A stretch of DNA of 64,000 nt, taken from Rhizobiaceae bacterium. GTDB lineage: Bacteria > Pseudomonadota > Alphaproteobacteria > Rhizobiales > Rhizobiaceae. The stretch is taken from contig JBAVTG010000216.1 of the NCBI GenBank assembly GCA_049696015.1, positions 504 through 64,503 on the forward strand. The letters run 5' to 3'. This document shows positions 8,172 to 45,100 of the stretch, piece after piece. The translations under genes and the position numbers were made by a program. Position 1 is the stretch's first letter; each line of letters opens with the position of its first letter. The notes under the pieces were generated by a model. It had not been told where the DNA came from. It ran no database searches and saw only the letters and a program-made list of their open reading frames with translations.

Positions 8172-8798
8172 ATGGCCCAGATTGGTGCTGTCCATTCCGT
8201 CGGAGAGTGTATCACCCGCCATTTGACGGGCGCGCTGACGCTGGAGCGCGCGACACAAGGTTCCCTGCCCGAAGCGCGGCGCACGCTACCAGTCGCACGG
8301 TTTGAACAGATTTCCGGGCAGCGATTCACCCAGACGTTCAATCCGGAAGAAAATCTGGTGACCTTCTACTTGTACCGGATGGCGGTTGACCGGCATCTGC
8401 GGGCAAGCGGCGATCCCAAAACGCCGCAGGACCCGAAATCGAGGCCGCTAAGCCTTGAGCTCCACTATCTCGTGACAGTCTGGGGAGAGGATGCGGCGGC
8501 AGAACAGACCTTGCTCAGCTGGACCATGCTTGAGCTGCACCGCGTGTCGCTGTTTGACCGCGCCGCCCTGCGCCCGGCTGCATTGTGGGACGCCGGCGAG
8601 ACGATACAGCTGCAGCCGTCCGAGATGTCGCATGAAGACATGATGCGGATCTGGGCGGCGCTGCGTCCCGGATACCGCCTGTCGGCTAGCTATATCGCGC
8701 GAACCGTCCGTCTGGAAACCGGGATCCGCACTGCCGCTTCGCCCGTGGTGGCCACGATGGCGCGTTTTGTCCCGCAGGCGGAGGACGCCGATGCGTGA
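8172..8798 (+). CDS. DUF4255 (Pvc16/Afp16-like) CIS tube-terminator/cap protein
   Basis: 208 aa with ...VTFYLYRMAVDRHLRA..., LSLELHYLVTVWGEDAAAEQTLLSWTMLELHRVSLFD and SHEDMMRIWAAL, the pattern of the DUF4255 family that marks eCIS loci. Confidence 0.8.
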   Translation: MAQIGAVHSVGECITRHLTGALTLERATQGSLPEARRTLPVARFEQISGQRFTQTFNPEENLVTFYLYRMAVDRHLRASGDPKTPQDPKSRPLSLELHYLVTVWGEDAAAEQTLLSWTMLELHRVSLFDRAALRPAALWDAGETIQLQPSEMSHEDMMRIWAALRPGYRLSASYIARTVRLETGIRTAASPVVATMARFVPQAEDADA

Positions 8799-9540
8799 GC
8801 AGCTCATCCAGCGCACCATGGGCGGCGTCAAGGTGGTTGATCACCTGACGCGCCAGACGCTGCGGTCCGGTCTGCGCCTGGTATCGCAGGATCTGGTCTT
8901 CGCCCCGACCGCTTCGGGCGCGTTCCAGATTGCCAAAGCGCCGGGGTTTGCAGCCTATGCGCGGTCCTTCGACACCGTGCCCGCCGTCGCGCCACGCCAG
9001 TTTTCCTTTGAGGTGCATGACAATACGCGCAGGTTCCTGCCCATCGCCGCCAATCTCACCTTGCCCCGCGATGCGGCGCCCGACGCTGCGGCGAACCGGG
9101 TCGACACGCCCGTCGTGCTTGAATTGCCGAGCGCCGGCGGGCGGGCCGCGCAAGCTGGGTGGACGGTCATGCGCGCCACCGTCGTGCGCCCTGACGGAAC
9201 CTCCATACCAGGCGTTCTGGTGCGGGCCATGCGCGCTGGCACGGCGGAAGAGCTTGGTTGGGGGCTGACCGACCTTTTGGGCCAGGCGCTGATCCCGATC
9301 CTGGGCGTGCCGCAACTGACAGAAGTGCAGCCAGACGATGACGACAACGAGCCCGAACTGACCACCGCCATCACCAACATCAGGTTGGAGCTGGCGGTCG
9401 ATGCCAACTTGCCCTGGCCCGCTGATCCTGCCGCGCTGCGGGCAGGCGGGCCATCCATCCGCGCCCTGTCGCCGCCCGGCGATATCGCGCTCACTGCCGG
9501 GGCGCAGGCGCATCGCCGCCTGACCATGGCCAATCTATGA
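8791..9540 (+). CDS. Hypothetical CIS-locus protein
   Basis: The ORF overlaps the upstream stop by 8 nt (ATG at 8791) and is co-directional within the operon. I recognise no motif. Confidence 0.55.
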   Translation: MREQLIQRTMGGVKVVDHLTRQTLRSGLRLVSQDLVFAPTASGAFQIAKAPGFAAYARSFDTVPAVAPRQFSFEVHDNTRRFLPIAANLTLPRDAAPDAAANRVDTPVVLELPSAGGRAAQAGWTVMRATVVRPDGTSIPGVLVRAMRAGTAEELGWGLTDLLGQALIPILGVPQLTEVQPDDDDNEPELTTAITNIRLELAVDANLPWPADPAALRAGGPSIRALSPPGDIALTAGAQAHRRLTMANL

Positions 9541-44294: not shown

Positions 44295-45100
44295 CCAACG
44301 CTTCGAAAAACGGGCGCGACCCTTTCGTGCAAGAGCAGCCGGAAAGGTGGAAAAGTGTCATGGAGGAACTGGAATGGGTCATCGCTGATTGCGAGAAAGC
44401 TCGTCAAGACCCGGCATCCTCGCCGACATTGAAATCCGGCATGACCAGCGACTGGATAGACAAACGGTTCGAACGGCTTTTGGCTTGGTATTCCGGGGGG
44501 CGCCCGGTAGCCGGCCTTGCGCCGGAGGCGTTGGAAATTCTGTGCCGGGAATGGCCTGCTTATGTTGCAGCTTTTCCTCCCGGAAAATCTGAAGGCGCCG
44601 CCGAATGGCCCGGACCCAGCAAAATGCTTCGCTGGGCATCGTTGCTTGTATTGGCGCGAGCCCCGGCTGAGGCTGCGCGCGCCTTCGGCGCGGTGCAGGA
44701 CCGTTTTATCGCAGATGCCGGCAAGCCGCGAGATCGCATTGTCGAGGCCATGTTGGCGCATTTGGAACCGGGCAAACGCAGGATTGCCACTGAAACCGTC
44801 TGCTGGCCGGACGCCTATGAAGCACTGTGGCAAGCCATTGATCCGGACAACAAGCAAACTGACCGGCCTGCGCAAATGAAGGCCTTTTTGAACGGATGGT
44901 ATGGCAAGATGAAAAATGAGGCGGCAGCGCAATCTGGGCGGTTGGAGGCAGGCAGCACTGCCTATGTCGGATACTGGTGCCTTGAAGCGGCCGCCGGAGC
45001 AGTGGTTGCGGGCATTGACGACAGCTCCTTCCGCAATCATCCGCATTACCCCGCCGATTGGGCCGACTGGGCACGGCGAACCACACAAGCTTCGGGGTAA
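44291..45100 (+). CDS. Candidate immunity protein for the giant protein's C-terminal toxin domain
   Basis: GTG start overlaps the giant gene's stop (GTGA). 269 aa with no signal peptide, and it looks all-alpha. The C-terminal YVGYWCLEAAAGAVVAGIDDSSF reminds me of DUF1911/PoNi-type immunity proteins, but this is unverified. Confidence 0.5.
   Translation: MTNASKNGRDPFVQEQPERWKSVMEELEWVIADCEKARQDPASSPTLKSGMTSDWIDKRFERLLAWYSGGRPVAGLAPEALEILCREWPAYVAAFPPGKSEGAAEWPGPSKMLRWASLLVLARAPAEAARAFGAVQDRFIADAGKPRDRIVEAMLAHLEPGKRRIATETVCWPDAYEALWQAIDPDNKQTDRPAQMKAFLNGWYGKMKNEAAAQSGRLEAGSTAYVGYWCLEAAAGAVVAGIDDSSFRNHPHYPADWADWARRTTQASG

Follow-up and report, generated by a model that had tools for sequence, protein, structure and literature searches.

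A predicted lineage II contractile injection system beside a repABC cassette in a Rhizobiaceae genome, with a putative giant toxin and a PoNi-family immunity protein

Which contractile machine is specified by the long operon that lies beside a repABC cassette in a Rhizobiaceae metagenome-assembled genome (MAG), what would it carry, and at whom would it be aimed? These questions arise from a sequence-only reading of 64 kb of contig JBAVTG010000216.1 (hereafter the window, i.e. the whole stretch of DNA that was analysed), which described 22 co-directional plus-strand genes at 8172-45100 as an extracellular contractile injection system (eCIS)-like operon on a repABC replicon. The system is known here from its genes alone. 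On balance, we favour the explanation that the operon encodes a contractile injection system (CIS) of lineage II whose cargo would be the giant toxin predicted from gene g21 (genes are numbered g1 to g22; Table 1).

The operon architecture is as first described. All 22 genes lie on the plus strand, the 22nd being an open reading frame (ORF) of 53 amino acids (aa), g8, which independent gene callers also find in a sibling contig (L068) and in the locus of Poseidonocella sp. HB161398 (L069). With gene starts set by ribosome-binding sites and stop/start overlaps, 13 junctions overlap and the largest intergenic gap is at most 33 nucleotides (nt). Every junction quoted in the sequence-only reading is present in the DNA: ATGA at 14195, 14668, 17175, 34762 and 35766, GTGA at 17843 and 44291, and TGATG stop/start overlaps with the ATG at 19396 and 27324. 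The G+C content is about 64% across the operon.

The profile search that the reading had proposed was run, with Pfam matches judged against curated gathering cut-offs and TIGRFAM/NCBIfam matches against their own family cut-offs. The cap, the sheath, two gp19-type tube proteins, the tube initiator, gpD, gpV, gp25, gpJ, gpI and the AAA+ ATPase all score above the Pfam cut-offs, and the repABC genes and the adjacent SARP regulator were likewise confirmed by Pfam. An AAA+ ATPase (Afp15) and a DUF4255/Pvc16_N cap (Afp16) set eCIS apart from phage tails and R-tailocins (PMC12210884). Both are encoded here, together with the set of sheath, tube, VgrG-like spike, gp25 and Baseplate_J proteins by which eCIS are recognised (Chen 2019; Geller 2021), and genes for heads, packaging and integration are absent within the window. 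The locus is thus of eCIS type and neither a prophage (no capsid, portal, terminase or integrase was detected by Pfam among the large ORFs of the window) nor a canonical type VI secretion system (T6SS, i-iii): it has a single 802-aa phage-type sheath protein and no split TssB/C sheath, a single-domain AAA ATPase and no ClpV, and the window contains no Tss membrane-complex family detectable by Pfam or NCBIfam. The word 'extracellular', on the other hand, was an assumption of the earlier description, as the closest solved relatives are a cytoplasmic Streptomyces CIS and a membrane-bound haloarchaeal CIS.

Among the subtypes of Chen et al., a split VgrG characterises IIa, IIb and IIc, whereas IId has a contiguous VgrG and mostly lacks afp12 and afp13 (PMC6899500). 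In the operon, VgrG is split between g9 and g10, there is one afp11 (g13), an afp12-like gene (g14) and three genes with a Cis13-type N-domain (g15-g17), all of which are IIb features; IIb is further marked by an afp6 gene and by the lack of PAAR, and here the 53-aa g8, in which no Afp6 homology was detected, stands at the afp6 position and PAAR was not found. The split VgrG and the Cis12- and Cis13-like genes do not agree with IId. We therefore place the locus in lineage II and, by diagnostic features and not by phylogeny, in putative subtype IIb, an assignment that is provisional because g13 is by pairwise score nearest to the Cis11 of a IId Streptomyces system among solved structures. Profile hidden Markov models, synteny and the closest solved structures agree with the earlier view that this is no textbook Afp/PVC copy and resembles the less-studied lineage II systems.

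What the machine might carry is suggested by the operon's 3' end. The 2,842-aa protein g21 has no Pfam, NCBIfam, PHROG (E ≤ 0.1) or PDB sequence match, and only about ten relatives were found among 5.8 billion proteins. All seven of the relatives examined lie in the same context, comprising a fibre-like gene, a g18-like gene, the AAA ATPase gene, a g20-like gene, the giant gene and a small overlapping gene; in the window, g20 and g21 each overlap the upstream gene by ATGA. The N-terminus of g21 (residues 1-170) is acidic and of low complexity, the family core runs to about residue 2377-2640 and includes strongly hydrophobic segments at ~754-785 and ~1497-1545, and the C-terminal 200-700 residues fall, across the family, into four unrelated classes on this common core. 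The most widely conserved stretch (residues 2178-2375; window 42297-42890) carries an EEGxHxxQ motif followed by DP..W and L..W..L and may be a pre-toxin or processing domain; a variable linker lies between it and the predicted nuclease at ~2690-2842. The same stretch also occurs in otherwise unrelated annexin-repeat giants of ~2,485 aa (P0009 and P0010). Its EEGLHVLQQ sequence was considered as a degenerate DUF4157/eCIS_core motif (HExxHxxQQ) and rejected, with no Pfam match at E ≤ 5 and an hhalign probability of 0.5%.

When the final 202 residues of g21 were used in an exhaustive HMMER search, 100 representative proteins came up, all of which carry the domain at the C-terminus; among the N-termini of 40 of them, Tox-PAAR-like, DUF4280, LXG, PT-TG and eCIS_core modules were found. 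Because it always stands C-terminally behind differing delivery modules, the tip is predicted to be a polymorphic toxin domain common to substrates of T6SS, type VII secretion systems (T7SS) and eCIS. In the alignment of the tip, E2716, D2751, D2767-A-K2769 and Q2783 occupy invariant or nearly invariant columns in a PD-(D/E)xK pattern, and the AlphaFold (AF2) model of the C-terminal domain is confident, with a predicted local distance difference test score (pLDDT) of 86. From these features, we infer a PoNe-like PD-(D/E)xK nuclease with DNase activity.

The last gene, g22, starts four nucleotides before the end of g21 and encodes a PoNi-family protein in which PoNi_C is detected by Pfam and PoNi_N is not. 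In the study that first described these pairs, a DUF1911 gene comes directly after 90% of the PoNe DNase genes, and a PoNe toxin is bound and neutralised by the PoNi that belongs to it (PMC6688995). In the related locus whose giant protein has the same C-terminal class as g21 (L002), a PoNi gene is also found downstream, and unrelated genes follow the giants of the other classes; the downstream gene thus co-varies with the C-terminal toxin class. We conclude that g21 and g22 are likely to form a polymorphic toxin-immunity pair with a predicted nuclease tip. The gene preceding g21, g20, matches no NCBIfam, Pfam or PHROG family, and its constant position makes it a candidate adaptor or chaperone for g21.

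Table 1. Features of the operon and of the upstream replication and regulatory region (window coordinates; E-values after the family names; L numbers denote related loci).
Feature	Position	Strand	Basis
repC	1078-2376	minus	Pfam RP-C 1e-57, RP-C_C 1e-32
repB	2579-3550	minus	Pfam RepB 2e-15 and ParB_N
repA	3597-4946	minus	AAA_31/CbiA ParA-type ATPase 6e-38
SARP-type regulator (BTAD domain)	6877-7911	plus	Pfam BTAD 9e-18; ends 260 nt before operon
10-nt direct repeat ACGCAGCCGT, two exact copies, 11-nt spacing	8100-8120	plus	52 nt before g1 ATG
g1, cap/tail terminator (Cis16/Afp16-type, DUF4255)	8172-8798	plus	Pfam Pvc16_N 7e-32
g2, 249 aa, conserved partner of cap gene	8791-9540	plus	L015 homolog 5e-12
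g3, sheath, 802 aa	9574-11982	plus	Phage_sheath_1 7e-17, Phage_sheath_1C 1.5e-11
g4, inner tube protein	11995-12444	plus	Phage_T4_gp19 3e-32; TIGR02241 above cut-off
g5, divergent second sheath-family protein, 579 aa	12459-14198	plus	PHROG phrog_23 tail sheath 6e-11; C-terminal domains of PDB sheaths 1e-4
g6, second tube-family protein (tube adaptor/initiator layer)	14195-14671	plus	Phage_T4_gp19 3e-23; TIGR02241 above cut-off
g7, tube initiator (Cis7-like)	14668-15897	plus	Pfam CIS_tube 6e-18, aa 17-162
g8, conserved 53-aa protein, Afp6/Cis6 ('spike plug') position	15901-16062	plus	ORF called in relatives
g9, baseplate hub, gp27-like half of split VgrG	16078-17178	plus	Phage_GPD 1e-9; VgrG_rel positions 66-346
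g10, spike, gp5-like half of split VgrG	17175-17846	plus	Phage_base_V 1e-19; VgrG_rel positions 375-541
g11, conserved 517-aa protein	17843-19396	plus	at least 499 homologs, none named, none with Pfam domain
g12, gp25-type baseplate wedge/sheath initiator	19396-19803	plus	GPW_gp25 1e-15
g13, Baseplate_J (Afp11/Cis11)	19808-21970	plus	Baseplate_J 4e-11; TIGR02243 221 bits, cut-off 156
g14, Tail_P2_I (Afp12/Cis12)	21970-24291	plus	Tail_P2_I 6e-8; TIGR02242 above cut-off
g15, 295 aa, Cis13-type N-domain, tail-fibre-like	24307-25194	plus	NCBIfam CIS13_fam 2e-14, N-terminal ~70 aa only
g16, 708 aa, Cis13-type N-domain and unmatched C-terminal part	25198-27324	plus	CIS13_fam 1e-6; kept in related loci
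g17, 1,309 aa, Cis13-type N-domain and large unmatched C-terminal part	27324-31253	plus	CIS13_fam 3e-6; kept in L002-L005, L010
g18, 562 aa, candidate tape measure	31243-32931	plus	Afp14 slot, size, hydrophobic segments aa 161-200 and 226-247
g19, AAA+ ATPase (Afp15/Cis15), single AAA domain	32921-34765	plus	Pfam AAA 2e-24, aa 405-529
g20, 335 aa, candidate partner of g21	34762-35769	plus	always directly 5' of giant gene; with g21 in L002-L005, L010, L070, L071
g21, predicted polymorphic toxin, 2,842 aa	35766-44294	plus	shared core and variable C-terminus
g22, PoNi-family immunity protein (DUF1911)	44291-45100	plus	PoNi_C 3e-21, 76.7 bits, cut-off 25

Roughly half of the coding capacity had been left as unassignable. 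This no longer holds for g5 (a sheath paralog), g21, g22 and the N-domains of g15-g17, and it does hold for g11, which has no detectable fold relative. Nor does the claim stand that tail-fibre-like parts are absent, since g15, g16 and g17 each start with a Cis13-type N-domain (CIS13_fam, NCBIfam NF053767; the scores are far below the equivalog cut-off, and the N-domains align), by which fibre-like parts are present in three versions. In Anabaena, it is through the Cis13 N-domain that a trimer resembling a tail fibre is docked to the baseplate (PMC8894136). No convincing transmembrane (TM) helix was found in g15, g16 or g17 by hydrophobicity, and g16 and g17 have no match among PDB sequences. 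The absence of LysM, claimed in the same breath, was borne out: the C-terminal tail of g7 (aa 170-409) comprises ~240 aa of low-complexity, Gly/Ala/Ser-rich sequence and has no LysM. More distant g7 relatives have LysM-like sequence in place of this tail.

The g11 gene sits between the spike and gp25 genes in 13 of the 13 related loci examined that cover the region. This slot is taken by PAAR in other subtypes; no operon protein matches the PAAR family. Its last ~50 residues (aa ~461-510) are nearly invariant, hydrophobic and Cys-containing, with the consensus FGMICGFSIPIITICAFIVLQIFL..LLNI.F.WLPFVRICIPFP. Structure prediction had been suggested for the unassigned genes, and for g11 the AlphaFold (AF2) model is confident over residues 1-410 (mean pLDDT 81.6), yet it matches no structure in the PDB or in BFVD (viral structures) at E ≤ 0.001; a PDB sequence match is lacking as well. 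We thus rejected g11 as a PAAR protein, a tail-fibre knob or any known fold. As to g8, the N-terminal motif M-x-(I/V)-(I/V)-(I/F)-(N/D/E)-(E/D/Q)-(F/L/V)-(E/T/V) is kept in ten loci, and its position, with no detectable homology to Afp6, would suggest the Cis6 role. Further along the baseplate genes, g13 matches the Streptomyces Cis11 (PDB 9gtp) at 1e-31, and g14 matches CIS12_fam at 4e-37, though below the cut-off, and PDB 9gtp_E at 2e-7.

Compared with PDB sequences, the sheath protein g3 is closest to that of the Streptomyces CIS (8bky/8bl4, 7e-87), followed by that of Halogeometricum (9ezm, 2e-84); Afp3 matches at 4e-40, and the sheath of the Anabaena thylakoid-anchored CIS (tCIS), at 6e-36, is far more distant. 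Compared with the nearest solved sheaths, g3 has ~270 additional aa, owing to an Ala/Gly/Thr-rich insertion of ~400 aa (aa ~100-520) that is retained in the nearest loci (L013, L015 and L069), shows weak similarity to g5 over the N-terminal half of the latter, and may form a surface decoration domain. The cap gene likewise comes first in these three loci. Its neighbour g2 has no Pfam, NCBIfam or PDB sequence match, and a 252-aa gene occupies the same position in Poseidonocella. At the other end of the structural genes, g18 matches no Pfam, NCBIfam or PHROG family (PHROG at E ≤ 0.1, HMMER only), its C-terminal ~130 aa being its most conserved part, and homologs of the ATPase g19, 37-56% identical, are present in all related loci.

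Taken together, these observations can be accommodated in the following scheme. The SARP/BTAD regulator would turn on the single long operon. A baseplate would be assembled from g9, g10, g8, g11, g12, g13 and g14 and bear the three fibre-like proteins g15-g17 through their common docking domain. The tube (g7, g6 and g4) and the decorated sheath (g3) would be nucleated on it, with the g5 paralog forming a specialised layer, and the DUF4255 cap g1, perhaps with g2, would close tube and sheath. The length would probably be set by g18, and the ATPase g19 would aid assembly or cargo loading. Loaded with the help of g20, g21 would be expelled upon sheath contraction; its hydrophobic segments would insert in the target membrane and the PoNe-like DNase tip would be delivered, and g22 would neutralise this nuclease in kin cells and in the producer itself. 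Gene content and order, the homologies, the polymorphic architecture and the co-variation of toxin tip and following gene are read directly from the sequences; the target, the release of particles, the loading and membrane insertion of the toxin and its DNase activity are inferred. Other bacteria would be the likeliest targets, because an immunity gene accompanies a swappable toxin tip; among eCIS there are precedents both for toxin-immunity pairs and for antibacterial toxins (PMC8213781). We also lean towards released particles as the form of the machine, because fibre-like proteins are present and a trans-envelope complex is not.

Several points weigh against this scheme. (i) The operon has no holin or lysis cassette. 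(ii) Among solved structures, sheath, Cis11 and Cis12 all find their nearest homologs in the cytoplasmic Streptomyces CIS, and the next sheath belongs to the membrane-bound haloarchaeal CIS. (iii) Particle, activity and target are all deduced from sequence. (iv) An immunity gene would be needed merely to produce a DNase in the cytoplasm, and is thus no proof of an antibacterial role. (v) The roles given to g11, g18 and g20 are guesses from position, and neither g18 nor g21 was recognisable as a tape measure in PHROG, Pfam or NCBIfam, which for g21 is a further difficulty. (vi) DUF4157/eCIS_core was not detected in g21, nor in g20, by Pfam at E ≤ 5. (vii) The confident model of the g21 tip retrieved only sub-threshold Foldseek matches (best E 1e-2), albeit mostly to endonuclease-like folds (tRNA splicing endonuclease, Cas4-family, HamA, Hjc, MGME1 and restriction enzymes).

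The first two points would be met if the machine stayed in the cytoplasm, as in Streptomyces (CIS-Sc and S. davawensis), and fired into the membrane of its own cell under stress; the nuclease would then bring about regulated cell death or release of extracellular DNA, and PoNi would restrain it until firing. Besides the absence of lysis genes and the similarity of sheath, Cis11 and Cis12 to those of CIS-Sc, the architecture of g21 speaks for this possibility, since it is that of the S. davawensis CIS effector Tme (2,247 aa, TM helices, C-terminal endonuclease; PMC11126660), and effectors of this kind also come in a toxin-antitoxin variant (PMC13277306). We nonetheless hold it unlikely, if well short of negligible. 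The operon has three fibre-like proteins with Cis13 domains, whereas CIS-Sc is devoid of fibres (PMC12237407), its VgrG is split, unlike that of IId (PMC6899500), and a bitopic membrane adaptor akin to CisA was not recognised. Moreover, the hosts are unicellular Gram-negative alphaproteobacteria with no developmental cycle, and polymorphic tips with co-varying immunity genes are typical of antagonism between strains.

The machine might instead be bound to the cell, with the baseplate on the cytoplasmic membrane and contact-dependent firing into neighbours, as in the T6SS-like CIS of Halogeometricum or T6SS-iv; this we consider rather improbable. It would explain the sheath match to the haloarchaeal system, which has toxin-immunity pairs of its own (PMC11566945), the nearly invariant hydrophobic tail of g11 could lie in a membrane, and Cis13 anchors the Anabaena CIS to membranes (PMC8894136). 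However, g15-g17 show no convincing TM helix, no trans-envelope complex or multi-pass anchor is encoded in or beside the operon, in a diderm host where peptidoglycan and outer membrane would have to be crossed, and a gene between those for spike and gp25 fits a central baseplate or spike part better than a peripheral anchor. Finally, a tail domesticated from a myovirus (a decaying prophage tail module or R-type tailocin) that kills by membrane depolarisation and has the giant gene as an unrelated neighbour is barely credible: the sheath, gp19, GPD, base_V, gp25, Baseplate_J and Tail_P2_I families are indeed common to phages, but the DUF4255 cap and the AAA+ ATPase mark out eCIS and are missing from phages and R-tailocins (PMC12210884), the window contains neither head, terminase or integrase genes nor a holin or lysis cassette, the giant gene is conserved along with the operon and overlaps the gene before it, and a near-identity DNA search, which covered plasmids and not the phage DNA collection, gave no match to the operon.

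The released, cargo-carrying CIS that we favour would be encoded next to a repABC cassette (Pfam), read on the minus strand in the order repA-repB-repC from 4946 to 1078. At the DNA level, repA is 75-78% identical to plasmids of Sinorhizobium, Rhizobium and Aminobacter; repA/repB, at about 75% identity, are the sole likeness to rhizobial plasmids, and a megablast search with 8172-28000 against the PLSDB plasmids gave no match. No Rfam family reached the gathering score anywhere in the window, including the antisense counter-transcribed RNA (ctRNA) families of repABC expected between repB and repC. The regulator gene upstream of the operon encodes a BTAD domain, a recorded 'shell' domain of eCIS (PMC8213781), and 3' of it lie the two copies of ACGCAGCCGT, spaced by one helical turn, for which a rough chance expectation is ~0.01 in the 281-nt region; they may be a binding site of the SARP/BTAD regulator. 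Promoter and terminator consensus scans at both operon ends returned nothing useful. Between repA and the regulator gene (5222-6145) lies the gene for a DUF1353 protein whose N-terminus (LLNAC) resembles that of a lipoprotein.

By Pfam, the other large ORFs of the window comprise rep, regulator, sugar metabolism and phosphoenolpyruvate synthase genes and a defence-like cluster. This cluster (45213-50786, minus strand) is convergent with the operon, and the G+C content falls there from ~0.64 to ~0.57-0.59. It encodes an Amidase_2 and SH3 protein in which no signal peptide is obvious, a patatin-like phospholipase, a metallo-β-lactamase (MBL)-fold protein that matches the PADLOC LmuA model (5e-45), and an S8 subtilase that matches the PADLOC 'subtilase' model (4e-42), and it looks like a defence-type island. 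The amidase, patatin, MBL and subtilase genes were also considered as parts of the CIS and were rejected: they lie on the opposite strand, have a lower G+C content, and occur only in the near-identical sibling contig and in no other CIS locus.

How widespread is the operon? A genome scan with the ATPase retrieved syntenic loci in Sulfitobacter MAGs, Microvirga pakistanensis, Poseidonocella sp. HB161398 and Burkholderiales MAGs, and a metagenome scan with g11 gave 57 loci sharing the order from g1 to g16. In Poseidonocella, a cultured isolate (GCA_005870025.1, scaffold VATA01000032.1), the order is identical gene for gene, including the 53-aa gene. The recurrence of one gene order in an isolate and in many metagenome and MAG loci indicates that the operon belongs to a widespread, conserved CIS lineage. 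Two Burkholderiales MAGs (L007 and L008) keep g14-g19 without the g20/g21 module and have several mid-sized ORFs after the ATPase gene, which suggests a different effector set. A sibling contig (L001; ENA ERZ25039524 contig_26069) encodes proteins 95-99% identical to those of the window; compared with window 27324-51000, its gene calls differ in g17, g19, the g21 start, the MBL gene and the subtilase gene (62% identical over part), which may reflect assembly frameshifts or real strain variation.

Neither the lineage itself nor the carriage of eCIS on plasmids, their BTAD regulators or their toxin-immunity pairs are new to the literature (PMC6899500, PMC8213781), and the locus neither overturns current understanding nor would surprise a specialist. 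In the literature searched, we found no description of the giant, polymorphic effector family with hydrophobic segments and its g20 partner, of g11, or of a triple set of Cis13-domain proteins. More speculatively, and with considerable doubt, g20-g21-g22 might represent an undescribed class of proteobacterial CIS mega-effectors of ~2,800-3,350 aa, threaded through the tube and inserting two conserved hydrophobic segments in the target membrane in a tape-measure-like manner to bring a swappable toxin into bacteria, with the Cys-rich hydrophobic tail of g11 as a membrane-active spike tip in place of PAAR. A recognisable immunity partner and a swappable tip, together with the existence of cultured carriers such as Poseidonocella sp. 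HB161398 and Microvirga pakistanensis NCCP-1258, make the locus a tractable test bed for an antibacterial role. It also provides an example for the loading and delivery of a toxin of ~3,000 residues with hydrophobic segments, which bears on the proposed tape-measure-like effectors and on the engineering of CIS cargo, and it presents g11 and the three fibre-like paralogs as conserved parts that await a role. Lastly, the operon's place beside repABC, in a MAG of the Rhizobiaceae, suggests plasmids as a possible vehicle of such weapons among soil- and plant-associated bacteria.

How, then, does the locus compare with known systems? Among the characterised systems that were compared, from insect pathogens, Bacteroidetes, cyanobacteria, Streptomyces and haloarchaea, we found no lineage II proteobacterial CIS of this layout. 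The nearest by solved structures is CIS-Sc (Streptomyces coelicolor/venezuelae, IId), which like the operon encodes a DUF4255 cap and an AAA+ ATPase and in which, again as here, no homolog of Afp14 can be recognised. The VgrG of CIS-Sc is a single ORF, fibre-like proteins are lacking and there is a CisA membrane adaptor, whereas the window has the split VgrG, three Cis13-domain proteins, g11, a sheath paralog, the ~400-aa sheath insertion and a Gram-negative host. Compared by description only, g21 resembles Tme and the S. lividans effectors Sle1 and Sle2 in being very large, with hydrophobic segments and an exchangeable C-terminal domain; these effectors have long non-globular regions, in Tme the domain at the C-terminus is a nuclease, and the modular Sle1-type effectors are related to tape measures, one relative forming a toxin-antitoxin pair (PMC13277306). 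Unlike Tme and Sle1, g21 has neither DUF4157/eCIS_core nor detectable homology to tape measure proteins, and its tip is PD-(D/E)xK/PoNe-like and not EndA-like.

The toolkit also matches that of Afp and PVC (Serratia and Photorhabdus; Ia), where toxin genes are likewise found 3' of the ATPase gene and the sheath C-terminal domains match at 1e-31 to 1e-40. In the window, however, the cap gene comes first, Afp2/3/4 are replaced by one long sheath and a divergent paralog, VgrG is divided between two genes, and PAAR, LysM and an adenovirus-type fibre are all lacking. Afp18, too, is a giant toxin, exceeding 2,000 aa in length. To our knowledge, the characterised Afp/PVC toxins are anti-eukaryotic and have no immunity genes.

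With the Anabaena tCIS (7b5h), the operon has in common the Cis13-type N-domain, a Cis12-type protein and a small gene at the Cis6 position. Anabaena Cis13 is short and ends in an anchoring TM helix, in contrast to g15-g17, which extend to 1,309 aa; the sheaths are distant, and Cis19 was not recognised in the window. The Halogeometricum borinquense T6SS-like CIS has toxin-immunity pairs with its cluster and a baseplate contact formed by Cis11, Cis12 and Cis13 (PMC11566945); it is archaeal and membrane-bound, with two cis11 genes and an upstream six-TM anchor, features not found in the window. The closest parallel for the end of the operon is offered by the PoNe/PoNi pairs of Vibrio T6SS and Bacillus T7SS (PMC6688995). 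Unlike the PoNe domains on substrates of type V secretion systems, T6SS and T7SS, the tip described here is carried by a 2,842-aa protein of a CIS operon and is PoNe-like by its motif; akin to them, a C-terminal toxin of PD-(D/E)xK type is directly followed by a DUF1911 gene.

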